A program made the position numbers and the translations under genes. From the IMG/VR virus record IMGVR_UViG_3300025154_000068, positions 1-64,000 of that record: DNA of 64,000 bases; one strand, written 5' to 3'. Source of the DNA: a virus. How positions within the stretch are numbered: the stretch's first letter is position 1; every line of letters begins with the position of its first letter. Below, piece after piece: positions 48,745 to 58,613 of this stretch. Under the pieces are notes generated by a model. The model was not told the origin of the DNA. It ran no database searches and worked only from the letters and a program-made list of their open reading frames with translations.

Positions 48745-49608
48745 TCAGTTGTGGGTGAGCAGAGCGATGCCGGGCTTGGTCTTCCCGGGCATACGCTTGT
48801 AGCGATGCACAACCGCGTAGGTCGAGACCACCACGATGTCAGAAGTGCCGAGGATGTCGCGCCCCACCTCGACAACGGGTTTGCCGTTGTACCAGAGCGC
48901 GATGGCGTTCTTCTTGGCGATGATCGTGGTGTACTTCGGAGGGGTCGCGCTCGATGCGGAGACGCGGTCGCTCTTGCCCCACGGGATGCCGGCGAACTTC
49001 GACAGACCGCCGTTGGCGGCGTCGGTGACGAGCGGGCGCCCCGTCGCGTCCTTGAGCTTGAGCACGTCGGACTCGACCTTGGAGTGCGAAACCATGAGCG
49101 CAATATCGTCGCTCTCGTCGCCCCACTTGGCGCGAGCATCGACAACCGCGTCGTAGTCGAGCGTGCGAGGAGTCGTCGCGCTGTAGATGTCCGTCAGCAT
49201 CGCGGGCAGCGACGCCACGCCGCCAGTGATGGCGAGCCGATCGACGGCCGCGCCGAAGCCACCCAGCAGCTGCTTGGCCGCCTCGACGTAGGGGTCGCCA
49301 GCGCCGGCGAAGCGGGCCCAGTCCGTGGACGAGAACGCCTTGCCGATCTTGACGACGGTCCCCTTCTCGTCTTCCTGCGTGATCTTCTGCGGGGTGAAGG
49401 CGGCTCCGTCGGAGATGGTCTCCCACTCGCCGATGCTCCCGAAGTACGGCACGGTCACTTCCGTGCCGACTTCGTTGATTCCCCCTGGGAACGTGTTGTT
49501 GACGGCCACCGCCCCGGTTCCCCAGAGCGCATTAAGCCCGCCGGCGAACGTGGCCTCAACGGCTTCCACGAGCACCTCGGGCACGACGAGATCAATAAGC
49601 TTCGTCAT
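48745..49608 (-). CDS. Major capsid protein
   Basis: TKLIDLVVPEV, VTVPYFGSIG, VEVGRDIL. Confidence 0.88.
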   Translation of the reverse strand: MTKLIDLVVPEVLVEAVEATFAGGLNALWGTGAVAVNNTFPGGINEVGTEVTVPYFGSIGEWETISDGAAFTPQKITQEDEKGTVVKIGKAFSSTDWARFAGAGDPYVEAAKQLLGGFGAAVDRLAITGGVASLPAMLTDIYSATTPRTLDYDAVVDARAKWGDESDDIALMVSHSKVESDVLKLKDATGRPLVTDAANGGLSKFAGIPWGKSDRVSASSATPPKYTTIIAKKNAIALWYNGKPVVEVGRDILGTSDIVVVSTYAVVHRYKRMPGKTKPGIALLTHN

Positions 49609-49625
49609 CTGTCTTCAATCCCTTC

Positions 49626-51074
49626 TCAGGCCGTGTGCGCCTGGTGTTCGGCCTTGAGAGCCTCGTAGGTCTTCCGATCGGTCCGGTAGAGATCGGCCTT
49701 CTGCTTGTAGGTGAGCTCCGCCCACTTCTTGCCCGCGATCGTGGCGGCGACGCTCTGACCGGTGGCGCTCTCGTCGGTGTTGTTGGTCTTGGAGGCGAGA
49801 GCCTGTTGGACGGGCATGGTCTCGATGTGACCCTTCAGCCACTCAGGATCGCCCAGCCCCTTGTCGCGAAGGGAATTCTCCATCGCCGGGGTGATCTTCT
49901 TGTCGGCGATTCCCTTGGCGATGAGACCGGCGACCTTCGACTCGTTCACGGCCGCCTCGAGCTTGACGATGTCCTTCTGGGCTTCCTCGAGCTTCTTGGC
50001 GGACTCGCTCCAGCCTTCGAGCTTGCCAATGGCCTCGCTGTCGGTCTTGGCTCCGGTCGCATCGAGCACACGCTTGCGCGTCTGCAGTGCGAGGGAGACC
50101 TCGGACACTGCCTCGTCGAGCGAGGCGGTATGGGTCATCGTCTCGAGCGTCTTGAGCACGCTCAACCGGGAGTTGAGCGCGTCGGACACGTCCTTGTCGG
50201 TGGCAGTGGCCATGAGGCCGAGTGCCAAGATGAGAGCGGTGCGTTCCATGGTGGAACCGGCTTTCTCCGTCGCTTGGACGGTGTTGTCTTCCGTGGCACT
50301 CCGCACACGGATCGAATGCGTTCGTTCGTCGCGTGGAGCTGGCCGGCGCGACATGGTGATTGGCTCGTAGGTGCGGTGGACTTCCTCCACCTCGTCAGCG
50401 AGCGTGGCTTCGAGTCCGGTGAGCGAGTAGCCCCGCCGGTACATCTTGCCGTTGAGCTCGTACACGAATACGTCGTCGTAGACCGCCTCGATGTACGGCC
50501 ACTCGTCCGCCACCTTGATCGAGAGCGCCTTGCGGATCGCTCGGCTGATGTCCTCAAAGGACAGACTGGCCTGCAGCTTCACCGAGCGCCGGTCGGCCAC
50601 CAGCGGTTCGATGCCCAGCATTGCCGGGTCATTCGTCAGCGCGATGTTCCGGAGCTCGACGACGCGGCCCGTCTCGACCTCGGCCATGCACCATGGGGAG
50701 AAGTAGCCCCACTCCTTGTCTTCGATTGCCTTGTAAGCAGCAGGTGTCCACTCGATGTTGACGGCCCAGAGTTCGGGCCCGTCGTCGGTTTCGCGAACCT
50801 CGAGGTCGAACCATCCCGCCGCCTTCTGGTGCTGCGGATCCGGGTCCTCGACATCCAACGCGTGCGGCCGAGCGTGGGCGTAGTCGAAGTGCAGCCGAAT
50901 CCCTCGCGCGGTGAATTCCGACATCACCGCTTCGGCCGCCTCGGCGTCGAACACAATGGGGCCGGTATACGATGGATTCACGCCGGCCTTGAAGATGCGA
51001 ATCTCCGAGGGCGGCTTGCCTGCCAGCTTCTTCGCCAGCAAGTAGCGTCGCTTTAGCATTGCAACTCCGGGCAT
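49626..51074 (-). CDS. Mu-like prohead protease/scaffold
   Basis: FDYAH, KAAGW, EWTPAA, YFSP, IALTNDPA plus helical scaffold. Confidence 0.88.
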   Translation of the reverse strand: MPGVAMLKRRYLLAKKLAGKPPSEIRIFKAGVNPSYTGPIVFDAEAAEAVMSEFTARGIRLHFDYAHARPHALDVEDPDPQHQKAAGWFDLEVRETDDGPELWAVNIEWTPAAYKAIEDKEWGYFSPWCMAEVETGRVVELRNIALTNDPAMLGIEPLVADRRSVKLQASLSFEDISRAIRKALSIKVADEWPYIEAVYDDVFVYELNGKMYRRGYSLTGLEATLADEVEEVHRTYEPITMSRRPAPRDERTHSIRVRSATEDNTVQATEKAGSTMERTALILALGLMATATDKDVSDALNSRLSVLKTLETMTHTASLDEAVSEVSLALQTRKRVLDATGAKTDSEAIGKLEGWSESAKKLEEAQKDIVKLEAAVNESKVAGLIAKGIADKKITPAMENSLRDKGLGDPEWLKGHIETMPVQQALASKTNNTDESATGQSVAATIAGKKWAELTYKQKADLYRTDRKTYEALKAEHQAHTA

Positions 51075-51105
51075 GAAAAAGCCCGCCGGGTCGGGGCGGG
51101 CTCTC
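51075..51105 (-). terminator. Intrinsic terminator after MuF and its partner gene
   Basis: AGCCCGCC-CCGACCC-GGCGGGCT-TTTT on - strand. Confidence 0.7.
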
Positions 51106-51125
51106 AGCGTCAGTTCGTCAGGTGG

Positions 51126-51473
51126 TCAGTAGATGGCGTCGGGGTCGGGCTCTTCTTCAGCCCAGGCCGCGTCTCTCGCGATGATCGCTACGGCATCCGC
51201 AGGGATGTCGGCGTCGGTCGGAGCGTATGTCGAGGTTTCGAGCTGGACTCCGACTCGCCGGGCATGCTGGTCGAGGAAGCGGTGCATGAGCCATGCGCTC
51301 AGCAGGTCGAGTGGGACATCGCCACCGGGCGCCATTCCGACGTCGACCGGAGAGCCGAGCTCCACGCCCGCCCTGACCCGCTCAGCGAGAGGAGTCCGGC
51401 CGGTCACGAGGACGGAACCCTTGTCCGTCCAGCGCACCGTCGTGCCGTCCTCGAACTCCCACTTGTGGATCAC
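51126..51473 (-). CDS. Small protein coupled to MuF (possible immunity/partner)
   Basis: GTGA overlap with MuF stop, GGAGG RBS. Confidence 0.6.
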   Translation of the reverse strand: MIHKWEFEDGTTVRWTDKGSVLVTGRTPLAERVRAGVELGSPVDVGMAPGGDVPLDLLSAWLMHRFLDQHARRVGVQLETSTYAPTDADIPADAVAIIARDAAWAEEEPDPDAIY

Positions 51474-53974
51474 GCGTAGCCTCCAAGACAACCGAGCACC
51501 CACCAGAAGTGCTCGCTGTCTTCACGGTAAGTCCAGAACGGGTCGGTCGCCACTTTTTCTGCTCCCATCGAGAGCAGTTCGGTCGCGTCGGCCTGGTAGA
51601 TCTTCCCGCAGTAGGCGGAGAAGAACTTGTCGGGCTTGGCAACTTCGCTCCACCCGTACGGGATCCCCGTGAGCGCGCTCAGCGGCTTGGCAACCTCGCC
51701 GGCGGTCCGCTTTCCGAGGAATGCAACTGCGGCCTTATGCACCGAAGCGTTGAGCGTCTCGATGGCGTGCCCCCATTCGTGAATCAGGGACCGCAGGTCG
51801 TTGGCGTTGACCCGAGGCGGGGACATCCGGATATCGCAGTAGGCCCGTCCGTTGACGAACCGGATCTGGGCCCGGCCGTCGAGCTTCTTGCTCATCATCG
51901 CGTCGTAGAACGCCTTGGCTCGATCGAGTCCAGGCATCTTGCGGGGCCGATTCGTGACCTTGGCTGTGCCCTTTGCTGAGTCGATGTTCGCGATGTGCCC
52001 AAGGATCGATGCGACTGCGTTGCCATCGTCGCCCTTGAGAAGCTCGCGCACGGACTTGTCCGGGTGGGTCTTGGCCGCTTCGACTACCGCTCTGACGCGA
52101 TCGACGAGAGCCCCGGTCATCGGGCCGTCGTACTTGTCGAGGGCGTGCTTCTTGGCGATTGCCCCGACTTGCTTCGCGGTCATGTCGAGGCCCCGTTCCT
52201 GGGCCGCTCTCCCCCACGCCATCGCACGCGCAGCGTCGCCGTACTTCGAGAATTCCTTCTCCCAGTGCTCGACGGTGTGCTCAGGCTTCGGCCCCGCGCC
52301 CGACTTGGGCTTCGGCCTGGCTTCCGCCTTCTCGGGCTTCGGTGTCCGCTGAACCGGGCGCTTGTCGAGTCGCTTGAGCCTCGCCTCCAGCTCCTTGCGA
52401 ATTTCCGGCGGATACTTCTTCGTGTCCGGCTTCCACTCTGCAGCATCCGGAGTCAGACCGAACCCATCTTGCGACGGTTCCGTCGAGGGAGTCTTGGTGA
52501 TGCCCTTGCGCTCGGCCTGTGACTTGCGGATCGAGCGAACTACACTGCGGCACCCAAAATGCCGAGGGGGGTAGTTCGTCTGCCACCAAGGGTGTTCGGC
52601 CGGAAGGATCGTTCCGTCGGCCTGCTCGCACATCAGCGTCACGCGATTGTCGAGGATCGCGTCGAATTGCCAGAAGGGCCGGACCTTCAGGAGCGCTGGC
52701 TCCGTCATCTGCTGGTGCCGACCTGCGTTGTACGCGAGTTGCACGTTCGTCCGGTAGATGGTATTACCTGTGTACAGACCGTTGATGGTGAAGTAGCCGT
52801 GCGCGGTAGAGAGGTTGAACACATGTCCGCGAAATGGAACGAAGCGACGCGAGGCAACGTGATCGAACTCTATATTTCTGGCCTCAGCATCAAGCGCGTT
52901 GCATTGGAGGTTGGCGCCTCCACTGGATGGGTAGCCTCCGTGATCTCCTCCGAGGGGCTCACACGATCGCTGCGCGATGCCAGAAGACTGCACTTCGCGC
53001 GAGGTGGCAGGCCCTCGCGAGAACGAACCGACCTGCCTAGAGAACAGATCGTTCAGCGATACGTCTCCGGCGAAAGCGCCAACAGTCTTTGCGGCGCGTT
53101 CGGTGTTCACCAGGATACCATCCGGCGCATCGTTGTGTCTACGGGACTCCACTGGCGCAGCGTCGCAGAAGCCGCAACGCTTCGTGACCACGATCAGATG
53201 GCCGCACGCGGCGCAGAATCTAGGAGTCGTAAGGTTGGCCGGTTCGAAGACGTGATCGCTGATTGGATCTCGCAGCGCGGCGAATTGCCCGAAGCTCAGG
53301 TTCCTTGCAGGACGCGCAACATCGACATCGCAATTCCCCCCGTCGCCGTGGAAGTCGTCACTGCGTCCGTGAATCCGTTCAACGTTGCCTACCTGCGCAA
53401 TCGCACCGAAGATCTGCGAGATGGTGGATGGTGGTGCTGTTACGTGATTATCTCCCAGCGTACCAAGGTGCTGTTGCCCACGGTAGCCGATCAGATCGTC
53501 GCCCTCGCGAAGTTGGCCCGCGGCAACCCATCCACGGCGCGTGAGCATTGGGTGATTCGGGGTTGCGGAGAACTTGCGGCCCGACGCGGTGACGACCTCG
53601 ACAAGGGCCCCCTCGAACCACCGTCGATGAGCTGCCCTTATCACCCCTCCGCTCACAAGGGTGTCCCCGGGTAGGCACTCCACCCGCCACGCCGGATTCA
53701 CGACGCTCCCAGCCCAGGCATCGAGGAGCTGCTGACCCACACGTTTCTTGAAGTCGTCCAGCGTCTCGCCGTTGGCAACGGCCCGGTCGAGAGCGAGCAG
53801 GACATCTCGAATCACGTCGGCTTGGGCCACGCCGGCCACGGTGAACGCCTTGCGCTGAGCCCGTTCGTCGAGCAGGTCCCAAACCTTCTTTCGGACCGGA
53901 GTTCGACCGAGCAGCCAAGACGCCGCGGGAGTGAACTCCTCGACGTCGGTGGGTGCGGCCCAGGGTGCGTTCAC
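51470..53974 (-). CDS. MuF/gp7 head morphogenesis protein with intein and C-terminal HEXXH extension
   Basis: AFTVAGV, RVE|TIYRTNVQLAYNAGR after splicing, PPRHFGCRS, LIHEWGH. Confidence 0.9.
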   Translation of the reverse strand: MNAPWAAPTDVEEFTPAASWLLGRTPVRKKVWDLLDERAQRKAFTVAGVAQADVIRDVLLALDRAVANGETLDDFKKRVGQQLLDAWAGSVVNPAWRVECLPGDTLVSGGVIRAAHRRWFEGALVEVVTASGRKFSATPNHPMLTRRGWVAAGQLREGDDLIGYRGQQHLGTLGDNHVTAPPSTISQIFGAIAQVGNVERIHGRSDDFHGDGGNCDVDVARPARNLSFGQFAALRDPISDHVFEPANLTTPRFCAACGHLIVVTKRCGFCDAAPVESRRHNDAPDGILVNTERAAKTVGAFAGDVSLNDLFSRQVGSFSRGPATSREVQSSGIAQRSCEPLGGDHGGYPSSGGANLQCNALDAEARNIEFDHVASRRFVPFRGHVFNLSTAHGYFTINGLYTGNTIYRTNVQLAYNAGRHQQMTEPALLKVRPFWQFDAILDNRVTLMCEQADGTILPAEHPWWQTNYPPRHFGCRSVVRSIRKSQAERKGITKTPSTEPSQDGFGLTPDAAEWKPDTKKYPPEIRKELEARLKRLDKRPVQRTPKPEKAEARPKPKSGAGPKPEHTVEHWEKEFSKYGDAARAMAWGRAAQERGLDMTAKQVGAIAKKHALDKYDGPMTGALVDRVRAVVEAAKTHPDKSVRELLKGDDGNAVASILGHIANIDSAKGTAKVTNRPRKMPGLDRAKAFYDAMMSKKLDGRAQIRFVNGRAYCDIRMSPPRVNANDLRSLIHEWGHAIETLNASVHKAAVAFLGKRTAGEVAKPLSALTGIPYGWSEVAKPDKFFSAYCGKIYQADATELLSMGAEKVATDPFWTYREDSEHFWWVLGCLGGYA
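52763..53677 (-). mobile_element. Intein (305 aa) in MuF
   Basis: CLPGDTLV, block B ATPNHPML, block F VFNLST, ends TGN before Thr+1; removal restores the MuF motif. Confidence 0.9.
52823..53674 (+). CDS. HTH + Vsr/DUF559-like endonuclease encoded antisense inside the MuF intein
   Basis: GAGAGG RBS; two HTH repeats (LYISGLSIKRVALEVGAS; RYVSGESANSLCGAFGVHQDTIRR); FE...EAQVP...NIDIAI..VAVEV...RTEDLRDGGW. Confidence 0.78.
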   Translation: MSAKWNEATRGNVIELYISGLSIKRVALEVGASTGWVASVISSEGLTRSLRDARRLHFARGGRPSRERTDLPREQIVQRYVSGESANSLCGAFGVHQDTIRRIVVSTGLHWRSVAEAATLRDHDQMAARGAESRSRKVGRFEDVIADWISQRGELPEAQVPCRTRNIDIAIPPVAVEVVTASVNPFNVAYLRNRTEDLRDGGWWCCYVIISQRTKVLLPTVADQIVALAKLARGNPSTAREHWVIRGCGELAARRGDDLDKGPLEPPSMSCPYHPSAHKGVPG

Positions 53975-55833
53975 AGGTCCTCGACGACAGCGACGCGTCC
54001 CGCGAGCTCCGCCAAGATGGTCGCCTTGTGGGCGAGTTGCTCGAATGCGGCGTTGTCCTTGACCTGCCCATAGTGCTCGGCGAGCTGCGTCCGAAGACGC
54101 TCCGGCCAATCGTCCCCGTCCTCGAGGTCGTCGATGAGCTCGAGCAGCTTCGCCACGTCGGGCTCGATGGCGCGGGCGGTCACCTGGGCAGCGTCGGTTG
54201 CGATGTCGTCAACGAACTGCTGGCCGTTGATGACGCCGGACGCCTTGGCTGGGTCGTCGCCAGAGGCGAGGGTGATAGAGCGCGCCGACAGCTTCGCCTC
54301 AATGATGGGTCCGACGATGCGTGGCACTTCGGCTTGCAGCACCTGGTGGAGCCTTCGCTCAGTTTCCGCCATAGCGTCAGCGACAACCGCGTCCCAGACG
54401 GGACGCCGACGGCTCGCCTTGACGTCTTCCGCATCGTCCTGTGGCTCTGCGTCGTCCCCTTCGTTCGACGCATCCTCGTCACCTCCGAACTGCGGCGGAA
54501 CCGGCGCTGGCTCCGACTCCTCCCACTCTGCCCCTTCCTCAAGAGGCATCCCGAACGTCCGTGCGTACTCGTTCTTGTCCACCGGAGCGCCCAACCCGAG
54601 CCACTTCTTCAGCGCGTCAGCGGCCTTGTCCCACGTGGTGGCGAGTGCTGCAGTGTCCGCCGGCGGTGTCGTGTCGCGCTTCGGCCAAGGGGCCTTGCGT
54701 CCATCGCCGAAGTTGAACGCCGCCCACCACCAGATGAGCTGCGACCGAATCGTCGTGGCGCTGGTCTCGTCGTCGGCGCGGATGATGGCCGCCGCCACCG
54801 CCGAGTGCACCTGCGCAGCGGCGTAGCTCCCGCCCTGAACCTCGGTGGAGAGGTTCTGTCCGAGGATGCGAATCGCGATGGCCGCGTTGGCCATGTTGAT
54901 CTGCGCCTGGAACGTCTCCCAGGTGTCGGCGACAGCTTCGACGAGCTTCAGATCGTAGCCTGGCGGCGTAACGATCGTTGTGTCCCGCCCGAGGTCGGAG
55001 ATGTCGCTCGCGAGCTCGTCGCGGTGCTCCCTGGTCGACCCCTCGTCGGTCGGGAATCCGACGAGCGTGCCCTGCCCGTGGCGCTCCGAATAGCGCCCCC
55101 AGTCGTCCCGGCCGTACTCCTTCAGGAGCCACCAGCGCGATACTGACCGCCACGCTCCTCGCGCCCACGGACGCTTGCTGCCGTACGGCGTGTACAGCAG
55201 CCACGTTCCGTCACCGGGGGTGACCTCGAGCTCGGAGCCGTCCTTCTGCCGAGCGAACCACTTGCGCTTGTCCTGGTCGTACCGAAGCGACGATGGGTGG
55301 ATGACGTCGAAGCCGGGAGTCCCGTCCTCCCGGTGGGGGATGAGTCGGATTCCGCTCGGCTGCTCGACGCGCTCCCACGACGCAATCCGACCGACGCCCA
55401 CACCGAGGATGATGCCCCACTCCATCCACTCGGAGAGGACGTCCTCGGGGACCATGTCCCACCAGTCCTCCTCGAGCTCCTCGAGCGGGGCGTTGGTATC
55501 CTGCTTCGGCGGCTGGAACTCGAGAGGCAGCCCCAGCAAGCCCCGGACGCGCACCTCGCGCAGACACCCGCTCACTCGGTCGTCGGCGAGAATCTCATCG
55601 CACAGCAGAGCGGCAAGCCGGAGGTTGCCGGTGTCCGCCATCGCCTCCGCACGCTTGATGAGCGTGGGCGACCACTCGATTGACGACGAACGGACGGACG
55701 ACTCGATGAACGGCGCAGGTTTCGGGATGCGCGGCACAACAGTCGCAGCGAGCGACACGGCACTGGCGATAGCGAGCACACGCCTCCCCACTTGCGTGAG
55801 AGTCGTCGATGCTCTGGTTCGCCAGTGGGTCAT
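53971..55833 (-). CDS. Portal protein (DUF935/Mu gp29-like)
   Basis: DWGRYSERHG, ILGQNLSTE..GGSYAAAQVH; follows terL. Confidence 0.85.
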   Translation of the reverse strand: MTHWRTRASTTLTQVGRRVLAIASAVSLAATVVPRIPKPAPFIESSVRSSSIEWSPTLIKRAEAMADTGNLRLAALLCDEILADDRVSGCLREVRVRGLLGLPLEFQPPKQDTNAPLEELEEDWWDMVPEDVLSEWMEWGIILGVGVGRIASWERVEQPSGIRLIPHREDGTPGFDVIHPSSLRYDQDKRKWFARQKDGSELEVTPGDGTWLLYTPYGSKRPWARGAWRSVSRWWLLKEYGRDDWGRYSERHGQGTLVGFPTDEGSTREHRDELASDISDLGRDTTIVTPPGYDLKLVEAVADTWETFQAQINMANAAIAIRILGQNLSTEVQGGSYAAAQVHSAVAAAIIRADDETSATTIRSQLIWWWAAFNFGDGRKAPWPKRDTTPPADTAALATTWDKAADALKKWLGLGAPVDKNEYARTFGMPLEEGAEWEESEPAPVPPQFGGDEDASNEGDDAEPQDDAEDVKASRRRPVWDAVVADAMAETERRLHQVLQAEVPRIVGPIIEAKLSARSITLASGDDPAKASGVINGQQFVDDIATDAAQVTARAIEPDVAKLLELIDDLEDGDDWPERLRTQLAEHYGQVKDNAAFEQLAHKATILAELAGRVAVVEDL

Positions 55834-55837
55834 TCGG

Positions 55838-57970
55838 TTACCGTCTGCTTCCGCCTCGCGCTGACCTGCTCGATGGTCGGCCCCGCCGGAGTCCGTCGTA
55901 GTCCTGGAGCTTCTTGTTCAGGTCGAGGGCAGTGATGCCCCACACGAGAGCGTCGACCCTGTCTGGCGATGTCTCATCGTTCGCTGGGTCCCATCCGCAC
56001 TGCTGGTCCTCGAGCTTCGGCAGCGTTCCCACGTGGTGGACTCTTCCCTTCTCGTAAAGGGTCGAGATCGGGTCTGCCCGGGTTGCCTTGCCCCGCGACG
56101 CGTGAACGGCCTTGAACGGCACACCCTGGCGCTCGGCTTGGACGTTGCGCTCGACAAGGTCTCCACCGTTGTTGACCTCGCCGATGATGTAGTCCGCTTC
56201 CCAGCGGTCGAAGGCCTCGAGAGCTCGCGCTGCCCATTGCGCTGGCGAGAAGACCCCGGAGAGGTCATCGAGAACGTAGGCGTGCCCGTCCTCGCCCAGG
56301 CCGACGACGATGATGCCGGTCTCGTTGCTCTTCGGGTTGGTCGATACCGCCGGGTCGATGGCGACGACCACCCGCCGCATGGGCGGGAGCGCGGGCGAGT
56401 ACGACCCATCGTCATTGACCCTGAGTCGAAGGTCATCAATCCGAGTGCGCTGCCAGAGCGCGTTCGGGTTGTCCTCGAGAATCTCGGCATCGATTTCCTG
56501 CCTGCCGAGCCTCGTCCCCTCGTACTCGGTGAGGATGGAGGCGAAGAACGGCTTAGCGAGGTTCGACCGATTCTCGTAGGTCGAGCCCTTCGTAAGGGCG
56601 ACATCCGCGCCTGCACGCTTGACGAGCTTCTTGATCGTCGCGATCGGCCTGGGCGTCGTCGTGACGATGCCTTGCGGATTCGTTCCGAGCCGGAACCCGA
56701 ACTGCAGCTGCGTCCACGCTTCCTGGAAGCGCCAGGCCGCAACTTCGTCCGCCCAAAACGTGTCGCAGTTGTGAACGAGAATCCCGTTGGCGAAGTACTC
56801 CGGCAGGCCCTCAACCGTGAGGTTGAACACCCGTCGAACGCCAACGTGCTCCCAGGTTGACGCAACGCTGACTGCAGTACCGTCCGCGCCTTGACACGAA
56901 CTCTCGCCCGCAGTGCTCGCACTTCCGGGTGCTCCTTCTGGCCTCGTCCGCGCGCTTCTGTTGGCACGCAGGGCACGCCGATGTGAAGCCGCCCCGCTTC
57001 CTGGGGAATGGCTTGCCGCAGTCCGAACAATCGATGTCGAACACCTCTCGTGACTCGACGTGCCTGTCGTAGTGCGTTCTGGGTGGCACGCACTCGAGGT
57101 TCTCGATCGCGTTGTTCGCCCGGTTGCCGTCCTTGTGATGGATGTGCCAACCAGGCGGGATCGGCCCGAGTTCCTGCTCCCAGATGACCCGGTGTTGGAT
57201 GTAGTGGCGACCGTTCGCGTAGCCGATGACGTATCCGTTCGCTCCAACGCGCCAACGAATACCCTCAAGCCCTTCGTCAGCTTGCCGAGTGGTACCCATT
57301 GTTCGCAAGATAAGACCGGATGATCGGCTGTGCCAGTGAGAGAAGCCCCGTTTGAGAAGCTGACGACGCCTACCTCGGCATCGTTCGAACCCGTTGCTAC
57401 AACCGGTCGAAGACCATGTCTCGTTACGACCAAATCGCCAACGGCAATGGCCTCGATCGGTCTGGGCCCCGCCTCGGTCTCGACAAGCGTTCCAGCGACG
57501 AAGCACTGCGGACCGCGCAGTCGATCGGGTCGGTCGGCCGACAGGATGGTGGCAACAGCCCCGTTGGGCCATGTCAGCCGCCGCTTCGATGGCTCGTAGT
57601 GCGGCTTGAACCACGGAGGCGAGATCGTCAGAAGTCCCGACTCGCCCTCGAGCATGACGTCGCGCGCATCCGCGGACGTCGCTGCGATCAGGGTGATTCG
57701 CTTGGACTCACCTGATTCAACCTTGCCTCGGATCCACTCGGCGCCAGTGCGGGTTTTCCCGAACCCGCGGCCCGCGAGGATGACCCAGATGACCCACGCC
57801 CACACGGGCGGGAGCTGCTTGTCGCGAGCCCAGAGACCTTGCCAGTCATACAGAAGCGTCCGAGCCGCTTCGTCCGGCAGCGTCGCTATCGCTTGCCGTA
57901 CCTGGCTCGGACTCATCTGGCGGAGCAAGCTTCGCAATCGCTTCTGCGAGCTGGCTCCTTGCATCATCAA
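55838..57970 (-). CDS. terL: Terminase large subunit with intein
   Basis: LAGRGFGKTRTGAEW, RLRGPQ|CDTFWADE, TTTPRP, VAIDPA, SPDRVDALVW; exact start uncertain. Confidence 0.95.
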   Translation of the reverse strand: MMMQGASSQKRLRSLLRQMSPSQVRQAIATLPDEAARTLLYDWQGLWARDKQLPPVWAWVIWVILAGRGFGKTRTGAEWIRGKVESGESKRITLIAATSADARDVMLEGESGLLTISPPWFKPHYEPSKRRLTWPNGAVATILSADRPDRLRGPQCFVAGTLVETEAGPRPIEAIAVGDLVVTRHGLRPVVATGSNDAEVGVVSFSNGASLTGTADHPVLSCEQWVPLGKLTKGLRVFVGALERTDTSSATRTVATTSNTGSSGSRNSGRSRLVGTSITRTATGRTTRSRTSSACHPERTTTGTSSHERCSTSIVRTAASHSPGSGAASHRRALRANRSARTRPEGAPGSASTAGESSCQGADGTAVSVASTWEHVGVRRVFNLTVEGLPEYFANGILVHNCDTFWADEVAAWRFQEAWTQLQFGFRLGTNPQGIVTTTPRPIATIKKLVKRAGADVALTKGSTYENRSNLAKPFFASILTEYEGTRLGRQEIDAEILEDNPNALWQRTRIDDLRLRVNDDGSYSPALPPMRRVVVAIDPAVSTNPKSNETGIIVVGLGEDGHAYVLDDLSGVFSPAQWAARALEAFDRWEADYIIGEVNNGGDLVERNVQAERQGVPFKAVHASRGKATRADPISTLYEKGRVHHVGTLPKLEDQQCGWDPANDETSPDRVDALVWGITALDLNKKLQDYDGLRRGRPSSRSARGGSRR
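56768..57505 (-). mobile_element. Intein (246 aa) in TerL
   Basis: CFVAGTLV, GTADHPV, VFNLTV..EYFANGILVHN then Cys+1; inserted just before Walker B. Confidence 0.92.
56811..57299 (-). CDS. HNH endonuclease with Zn ribbons in an alternative frame inside the TerL intein
   Basis: YIQHRVIWEQELGPIPPGWHIHHKDGNRANNAIENLECV; CSDC, CPAC, CEHC, YCSQRC. Confidence 0.88.
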   Translation of the reverse strand: MGTTRQADEGLEGIRWRVGANGYVIGYANGRHYIQHRVIWEQELGPIPPGWHIHHKDGNRANNAIENLECVPPRTHYDRHVESREVFDIDCSDCGKPFPRKRGGFTSACPACQQKRADEARRSTRKCEHCGREFVSRRGRYCSQRCVNLGARWRSTGVQPHG

Positions 57971-58382
57971 TCTCGATTGCTCCGCCGTCTGGACCGCTCA
58001 CCTCGGAGCGGGATGGCGCATCCGTGCCGAGCAGTCGAGCTCGCCGCTCCTCGATCCGGAGGGCTGTGTCGATGGCCCTCGGGTCTCCACGCCTCACCTT
58101 GCCGCGCAGTGCCCAGAGCATTCCGTCGAGGCGGATGAGCATCAGGTCCCGGACGTCCTCTGCGGACTCCTCCGTCTGCTCCCGAAGCTCAGCGAACTGC
58201 TTCTGGACAAGCTTCCAGGCCGCTTGCTTGGAGATGCCGAGCGCCTTGCCGATCGCGGGATAACTCGCGCCAGTGCGCTTCAAGTCGAGTGCCTTGGCGG
58301 CTCGGTCGATCGTGCGCACCTTCCGCGGCGTGACCTTGGTCGTCTTCGCCTTGGCCTTCGCCGTCTTCTTCTGCATCGTCAA
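57846..58382 (-). CDS. terS: Terminase small subunit
   Basis: HTH (GASYPAIGKALGIS), ERRARLLGTDAP, EVSGPDGGAI; overlaps terL. Confidence 0.8.
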   Translation of the reverse strand: MTMQKKTAKAKAKTTKVTPRKVRTIDRAAKALDLKRTGASYPAIGKALGISKQAAWKLVQKQFAELREQTEESAEDVRDLMLIRLDGMLWALRGKVRRGDPRAIDTALRIEERRARLLGTDAPSRSEVSGPDGGAIEIDDARSQLAEAIAKLAPPDESEPGTASDSDAAGRSGSDASV

Positions 58383-58394
58383 CCAGTCCGTACG

Positions 58395-58613
58395 TCAACC
58401 CCACGACCACCGAAACGAGAACCGGCGGCTCCCACACTTGCACGCTGCCAAGGGGTCGGGCACCTCGAGCTCGAACACCGTTCGGCCGTCCACCTTCACC
58501 TCGCGCGAGATCTTCGCGCCGGCTTCCTTGAGCCGGTCGAGGTCGGCCTCAGCTCCGCAACGAATGCACCGGCACCCGATGTCCACGCCGATTCCGTGCT
58601 CGAGCTCGGCCAT
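58395..58613 (-). CDS. Small Zn-ribbon protein
   Basis: CIRCG...CKCGS; GGAG RBS. Confidence 0.55.
   Translation of the reverse strand: MAELEHGIGVDIGCRCIRCGAEADLDRLKEAGAKISREVKVDGRTVFELEVPDPLAACKCGSRRFSFRWSWG

Follow-up and report, generated by a model that had tools for sequence, protein, structure and literature searches.

A phage MuF intein with a predicted homing-endonuclease gene on the antisense strand of the same codons

We analysed a 64,000-nucleotide stretch of viral DNA (hereafter the window), positions 1 to 64,000 of the IMG/VR record IMGVR_UViG_3300025154_000068, in which a MuF-like head-morphogenesis gene is interrupted by an intein and the intein faces a long open reading frame (ORF) on the other strand. 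The record, 83 kb long, comes from groundwater and belongs to an uncultured groundwater phage. DNA of the window was found in metagenomes from groundwater, soil and aquifer, and a megablast of window positions 49000-58500 against phage records returned no match. The interrupted gene (51470-54109, minus strand, 879 codons) encodes a minor capsid protein, matched by Pfam Phage_Mu_F at E=2.5e-15 and by PHROG 220, minor head protein, at E=3e-42.

The intein, a class-1 element of 305 amino acids, occupies 52763-53677 on the minus strand. In the translation it is preceded by ...AWRVE and followed by TIYRTN..., runs from Cys1 to Asn305, and carries block B (TPNHP), block F (GHVFNL) and a C-terminal Gly-Asn ahead of Thr+1, the junction reading ...YTGN/T (a slash marks the splice site here and below). 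Block B begins with T39-P-N-H42, and C1, T39, N41, H42 and P43 are invariant across 39 aligned inteins; N305 is invariant as well, and Asn is terminal in 68 of 69 aligned inteins. An AlphaFold2 model based on the 39-sequence alignment gave pLDDT values (predicted scores of the local distance difference test) of 88-95 for residues 1-66, 70-87 for residues 80-135, 86-94 for residues 269-305, and 26-41 for residues 139-266. It delimits an N-terminal HINT lobe (residues 1-135; 53273-53677, minus strand) and a C-terminal HINT lobe with blocks F and G (residues 269-305; 52763-52873, minus strand), the opposite strand of the latter holding the 5' leader, the Shine-Dalgarno (SD)-like motif and the start of the antisense gene. 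The in-frame middle (residues 139-266; 52880-53263, minus strand) is predicted to be disordered and reads as a stop-free read-through of the antisense gene. Foldseek searches with the model returned only inteins and Hedgehog HINT domains, led by the Mtu RecA, Pho RadA and Ssp DnaB inteins at probability 1.00. Translation, AlphaFold2 and Foldseek thus agree with the original prediction of a minus-strand MuF intein with regular splicing blocks and a featureless middle. We rejected a cryptic nuclease or zinc finger in that middle, since all that speaks for it is a Pfam C1_1 match at E 0.012, below the cut-off, and the model is disordered there. The intact essential host gene and the conserved blocks suggest that the precursor undergoes protein splicing.

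On the plus strand, an ORF of 283 codons plus a stop, the putative antisense homing-endonuclease gene, extends over 52823-53674. It is codon-aligned with the intein, such that intein residue i faces ORF residue j with i+j=286, and it spans nearly the whole intein, overlapping splicing blocks A, B and F. Its ATG at 52823 faces the His codon CAT of the block F motif GHVFNL, and the SD-like GAGAGG (52809-52814, plus strand), 8 nt upstream, mirrors the block F codons Asn-Leu-Ser. At the other end, the C-terminal hairpin of the product (WVIRG) lies opposite block B (TPNHP), and the TAG stop (53672-53674, plus strand) faces intein Leu2, whose codon CTA is rare (2 of 177 Leu codons in neighbouring genes). 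The extent of the ORF in exact codon register inside the intein, the ribosome-binding site within the block F codons, the start opposite His and the stop opposite an unusual Leu codon had all been described in advance, and we found each of them in its place.

The plus-strand product combines two helix-turn-helix (HTH) repeats with a nuclease-like domain. The first HTH (ORF residues 6-43; 52838-52951, plus strand) matches Pfam HTH_23 at 25.4 bits (cut-off 24.6) as well as HTH_58, and folds as a three-helix unit in the AlphaFold2 model; the second (residues 73-106; 53039-53140, plus strand) matches HTH_28 at 31.4 bits (cut-off 25). Both repeats of the original prediction are thus recognised above Pfam cut-offs. 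The model, with a mean pLDDT of 84.7 on an alignment of only ten homologues of ~280 residues, shows two three-helix units followed by an alpha-beta-beta-beta-alpha-beta core and a hairpin. The nuclease domain (residues 142-255; 53246-53587, plus strand) consists of a helix with E142, three strands with N166/D168 and E177, a helix, a strand, and the hairpin WVIRGxGE, at pLDDT 87-96. AlphaFold2 of the two frames, which had been proposed as a check, therefore yields a confident nuclease-type fold for the plus strand, and a disordered middle with HINT matches only for the intein.

Structural comparison links this fold to phage endonucleases. Against the PDB the Foldseek matches were weak, with the catalytic domain of I-Bth0305I (3r3p, TM 0.52), the DUF559-like 3hrl (TM 0.58) and HTH pairs of paired domains among the highest-ranking. 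Against the predicted viral structures of BFVD, full-length matches were obtained (probability 0.97-1.0, E 5e-5 to 6e-4) to phage proteins named NUMOD3, endonuclease, DNA mismatch endonuclease and DUF559. The third-ranked, A7KV39 with 266 residues, we suspect to be I-Bth0305I itself. An hmmsearch of PDB sequences with the 54-sequence family profile found the tandem-HTH proteins 2lvs and 8vd6 at E ~3-5e-7, and PHROGs and NCBIfam gave only weak DNA-binding matches.

In the 54-sequence alignment E142, Q159, N166, D168, A170, A175 and E177 are invariant. E142 and D168 lie 26 residues apart, the same spacing as E170-D196 of I-Bth0305I, a match of sequence spacing and not of superposed residues. D168 sits on strand 2 and E177 on strand 3 of a PD-(D/E)xK-type topology; the residue two after E177 is not Lys, and R194 and Q159 are conserved candidates to stand in its place. 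We therefore describe the product as a predicted Vsr-like / PD-(D/E)xK-type nuclease of I-Bth0305I-like architecture, and not as a DUF559 member. Of the Vsr/DUF559-like pattern claimed for it earlier, the structural likeness to phage Vsr-like, NUMOD and DUF559-type endonucleases stands, and membership in the DUF559 profile (PF04480) does not, Pfam giving no match up to E 1.

A search of the whole virus record with PF04480 found only a different, free-standing gene (L088:1450-2169, minus strand, 239 codons, 28.4 bits, above the Pfam cut-off), ~450-1170 bases past the end of the window. It stands between ordinary coding-strand genes and possibly encodes another homing-type endonuclease of the same phage; no relationship with the antisense nuclease could be detected.

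Homologues of the antisense product proved to be widespread. Ten, of ~280 residues and 44-55% identity, were present in a large protein database, and inclusion of IMG/VR and GTDB genome scans widened the range to 44-63%. More distant homologues (23-30% identity) were found by tblastn in deposited phages, namely the Gordonia phages Vivi2, Fosterous, Affeca, Angelicage and Malisha, a Vibrio phage, 15 Pseudomonas phages and Cronobacter phage ES2. In the four phage records that we opened (Gordonia Vivi2, Vibrio vB_VaM_H2, Pseudomonas vB_Pae_BR313c and Cronobacter ES2), the homologue lies antisense inside an annotated MuF/head-morphogenesis gene as a complete ORF of 233-286 codons, and the sense frame reads as an intein. 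In all four, the antisense ORF is unannotated and the intein unmarked.

Together with 82 loci from the IMG/VR and GTDB scans, these records make up 86 homologous loci. In every one of the 86, as in the window, the homologue is antisense, in register 0, and opposite an open frame of 250-1460 codons, with every other antisense frame closed. Among 69 homologous host proteins, Intein_splicing was matched in 64, the aligned insert runs from Cys to Asn in 68, and the host frame was assigned by Pfam to Phage_Mu_F (45), UDG (3), the 2'-5' RNA ligase family (2), Terminase_3 (2) or Top1B (1). The family is thus hosted by at least five gene families, in phages of Actinobacteria and Proteobacteria, and within MuF it uses at least two sites (...RTE/C... 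and ...IN/C...N/CxC).

The boundaries of the ORF are conserved too. In 52 unique loci the plus-strand ATG lies opposite the His of G-H-V-[YF]-N-L, and in nearly all homologues a purine-rich AGG, GGAG or GAGG mirrors Asn-Leu at the same place. In 33 of 87 loci the stop faces intein residue 2; elsewhere it lies at most ~34 codons inside the intein, and once one codon outside it. Stops within homologues had been named beforehand as a sign against the reading; the plus-strand ORF was intact in the loci with a sole exception, an IMG/VR relative (L021:858-2015) with an in-frame stop in its antisense ORF and an open intein-bearing frame of 649 codons. This is likely a decaying copy, or possibly an assembly error.

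We asked which of the two frames is selected using a codon alignment of 46 unique, near-full-length members. Over ORF residues 21-220 the most variable site is plus position 3, which corresponds to minus position 1. Amino-acid identity there is 0.22-0.61 in the plus frame versus 0.15-0.51 in the minus frame, and the ratio of non-synonymous to synonymous changes (pN/pS) is 0.54 versus 0.87, with 26 of 26 pairs in agreement. Over ORF residues 221-283, which face intein residues 3-65 with blocks A-B, the pattern reverses: plus position 1 is the most variable, identity is lower in the plus frame than in the minus, and pN/pS is 0.66 for the plus versus 0.47 for the minus frame (21 of 26 pairs). Because the pairs have common ancestors and synonymous sites are almost saturated, these ratios are informative in their direction and not in their magnitude. 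The substitution patterns indicate that the plus frame is under purifying selection over residues 21-220 and that the intein frame dominates opposite blocks A-B, within residues 1-66 of the N-terminal HINT lobe. Even there the plus-strand motif WVIRGxGE, the mirror of the intein TPNHP, is strongly conserved, and about 40 codons appear to be constrained by both proteins, as block B of the intein and as the hairpin of the nuclease.

Stop codons tell the same story of two maintained frames. In AT-rich members, the chance of a frame staying open would be P ~1e-6 to 1e-12 per frame per locus. An open MuF half is unsurprising, since any stop in that frame would be lethal. For the plus frame, ~287 mirror-stop codons were expected over 64 loci and 2 were seen. 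The overlap of both frames is therefore maintained. Of the comparisons per strand suggested at the outset, that of selection favours the plus frame over residues 21-220.

We also looked for signals of antisense expression. In 22 of 52 unique loci, a hexamer that agrees with TATAAT at five or more of its six positions sits 50-53 nt upstream of the start codon. It lies opposite the block G codons [LI]-[YI]-T and, in members of 60-63% GC, uses the rare Leu codon TTA. Synonymous resampling with local codon usage led to an expectation of 7.5 such loci, and a count of 22 was not reached in any of 200,000 simulations; the loci are not independent, hence this is not a true probability. These counts point to an internal antisense promoter in many members of the family.

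A further line of evidence comes from a related phage in which the intein is missing. A 3124-nt contig from aquifer run X17 matches both flanks with scattered differences and skips 52748-53686 of the window. Where the window has 939 nt the contig has 24 nt, and the difference of 915 nt is precisely the length of the intein. Translated in the MuF frame, the bridging 24 letters give R-I-E-T-I-H-R-T, and we take the skipped stretch to mark the homing site.

Considering all the above results, we regard the locus as probably a class-1 MuF intein with a separate 283-codon antisense homing-endonuclease gene on the same codon triplets. The enzyme would carry two DNA-binding HTH repeats at its N-terminus and a Vsr-like / PD-(D/E)xK-type nuclease at its C-terminus. 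In the MuF frame, the part encoding the HTH repeats and the linker would amount to a disordered loop, free of stops, that joins one HINT lobe to the other, and for this reason the precursor is predicted still to splice. No register is easier to keep free of stops on both strands than codon-aligned antisense, because only TTA, CTA and TCA must be avoided, all of them synonymously avoidable. Translated from an antisense RNA, the endonuclease would cut intein-less MuF alleles near R(V/I)E/TI(Y/H)RT, and repair would copy the whole intein-plus-nuclease unit into the cut site. The dual-coding mobile intein with its endonuclease as a separate antisense gene, as originally proposed, is thus supported by the HTH domains, the fold, the 86 loci, the pattern of selection and the intein-less allele.

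Several observations weigh against this explanation. On the side of the intein, the penultimate His of block G is absent, Gly preceding the terminal Asn; this Gly is common to the whole close clade, and in members further removed the residue is H, S or Q. As inteins lacking this His are known, Gly at this position is not disqualifying. On the side of the nuclease, Pfam, PHROGs, NCBIfam and the PDB hmmsearch recognised the HTH part only and not the nuclease domain, the 54 sequences hold no invariant counterpart of the His and second Asp of the EDxHD motif, and an hhalign comparison of the antisense-family profile with the phage's own DUF559 protein was negative (probability 0.3%). A sigma-70 scan of 52300-54000 found no plus-strand promoter, and at the position of the TATAAT-like hexamer the window has GTACAG. 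Plus-strand transcription and translation in this particular phage are something we infer, and the uncoupling from late-gene expression that was originally proposed would be a further supposition. Finally, presence/absence polymorphism by itself gives no direction, gain and precise loss being inseparable.

The absence of a promoter-like plus-strand site in the window, and of the -10-like hexamer present in 22 of 52 relatives, would also fit a recent relic, that is, a once-working homing endonuclease that is here no longer expressed or active, the intein being now vertically inherited. Decay of this kind does occur, as the stop in the plus-strand ORF of L021 with its open intein frame illustrates, and some VSR-like groups look vertically inherited (bioRxiv 10.1101/2025.01.02.630785). 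However, the ORF of the window runs its full length, and none of the invariant residues, the ATG or the SD-like motif has been lost from it. A useless antisense ORF should decay fast, as selection on MuF would shield it only through the mirror-stop constraint, and an intein-less allele exists in a close relative. We therefore consider a relic unlikely.

It is less likely still that the antisense protein is expressed with another main role, be it an HTH or antisense-RNA-linked regulator of MuF or late genes, or a nuclease directed against competing phages (marker exclusion). Its two HTH domains do resemble those of regulators, resolvases and transposases, and the (D/E)xK motif lacks its classical Lys. 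Yet the family is found only inside inteins, in at least five host gene families and at two MuF sites, which fits a nuclease that mobilises inteins and not a MuF-specific regulator. In addition, its predicted domain plan matches that of a proven homing enzyme, I-Bth0305I, with two HTH/NUMOD repeats followed by a Vsr-like nuclease. As for a chance antisense ORF without a protein product, long codon-aligned antisense ORFs are so common in this window of 64% GC that length alone is no evidence, but the Pfam domains above cut-off, the confident fold, the plus-frame type of substitution, the conserved start and stop, and homologues down to 23% identity that are still open in genomes of 42-47% GC refute it to near certainty.

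If the locus is indeed an intein with an antisense homing-endonuclease gene, the question arises of how the two came together. The antisense orientation, single register and single relative position in 86 of 86 loci, and the fact that the ATG, the SD-like motif, the C-terminal hairpin and, in 22 of 52 loci, the -10-like box mirror splicing blocks F, F, B and G, respectively, lead us to suggest a single origin. Intein and antisense nuclease would then be one ancient, obligately overprinted module that later spread across five or more families of host gene and among phages of both Actinobacteria and Proteobacteria, and not the product of repeated recent invasions by free-standing endonuclease genes. 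We offer this only tentatively, as a scenario that may well be right but to which we would give slightly less than even credence.

The layout itself is already known. In a PhagesDB survey, Gosselin, Arsenault and Gogarten described antisense VSR-like endonucleases in the minor-capsid inteins of actinophages (bioRxiv 10.1101/2025.01.02.630785), where inteins with an antisense-encoded homing endonuclease form type C, and the window is a new, distant member of this group. According to that preprint, minor-capsid inteins carry only non-canonical endonucleases, their in-frame region is without recognisable structure, and HHpred links a VSR-like protein to 3R3P at E 4.6e-5. The window shares with these elements the full intein, the antisense endonuclease ORF, the structureless in-frame middle, the MuF-like host and a long helical N-terminal part. 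Homology is direct, as the window protein is 29% identical (E 8e-25) to the MuF antisense frame of Gordonia phages Vivi2, Fosterous, Affeca and Angelicage. Unlike the actinophage set, the family reported here extends to phages of Vibrio, Pseudomonas and Cronobacter, and its host genes include UDG, TerL, RNA-ligase and Top1B. Moreover, the antisense ORFs of the preprint typically lie outside the splicing domain, whereas the ORF of the window overlaps blocks A, B and F.

Other known systems share parts of this arrangement. Antisense LAGLIDADG inteins, such as those of Synechocystis DnaX and the Chloroflexus SpoVR-like protein (Gorbalenya 1998; Gogarten 2002; both as cited in bioRxiv 10.1101/2025.01.02.630785), are alike, to the extent that this secondary account describes them, in having an endonuclease ORF opposite a contiguous intein with an open frame; they differ in encoding a LAGLIDADG instead of a Vsr-like / PD-(D/E)xK nuclease and in having cellular hosts. 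The Vsr-like EDxHD family is known from intron-borne genes or from free-standing, same-strand genes between split-intein halves (Dassa 2009, PMC2677866; Taylor 2011, PMC3239194), and Dassa 2009 describes no antisense intein endonuclease. I-Bth0305I, a Vsr-like nuclease, resembles the predicted product of the window in its two N-terminal HTH/NUMOD repeats followed by a C-terminal nuclease domain, the 26-residue Glu-Asp spacing and the Foldseek link, but its gene lies in a group I intron. Dassa's EDxHD relatives, in turn, are free-standing same-strand genes in "fractured genes". With respect to the motif, the His and second Asp of EDxHD are not conserved in the family of the window, in which E177, Q159 and N166 are invariant instead.

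What our analysis adds is the extension of the family beyond actinophages and beyond MuF, its uniform register and position, the split selection and the overlap with splicing blocks, as well as the start signals mirrored on block F, the candidate -10 box on block G and the empty-site allele. The locus offers a clean natural example of one set of codons that encodes two structured proteins, one per strand. The layout is widespread: besides dozens of uncultured phages, it extends to phages of Vibrio, Pseudomonas and Cronobacter, in whose database records only the head gene is annotated and the nuclease gene is overlooked. New sequence-specific nucleases, and inteins tolerating a 130-residue disordered insert, might also be drawn from the family. 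Since some relatives are culturable, how and when the antisense strand is expressed becomes directly testable.

In the neighbourhood of the MuF gene, two further plus-strand ORFs are codon-aligned antisense to minus-strand ORFs, at 49635-51056 (473 codons) and 53953-55146 (397 codons). The first faces a minus-strand ORF of 482 codons (49626-51074) and the second a minus-strand ORF of 620 codons (53971-55833) adjacent to MuF, presumably the portal gene. Their translations look of low complexity, and both are probably artefacts of the high GC content.

The window holds a second intein, in the TerL gene (55838-57970, minus strand). It occupies 56768-57505 on the minus strand, comprises 246 amino acids (CFVAGT...ILVHN/C) and has an S/T/R-rich in-frame middle. 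Nested in it on the same strand is an ORF at 56811-57299 (minus strand) in frame offset 2, matching HNH_3 at E 4.7e-18, with its ATG at 57299 and its stop inside the intein. With the antisense nuclease in MuF and the nested HNH gene in TerL, the phage therefore has two inteins with out-of-frame nucleases. The hidden HNH endonucleases of Arsenault et al. 2025 (PMC11855218) are comparable to the MuF element in that a nuclease is overprinted on an open host frame, but they lie on the same strand in a shifted frame, are HNH enzymes and have no detectable intein, and they are closer to the TerL intein of the window than to the MuF intein. The nested HNH ORF has a homologue inside terL of Tetrasphaera phage TJE1, with the same frame offset of 2, and others lie under the terL annotations of further phage records.

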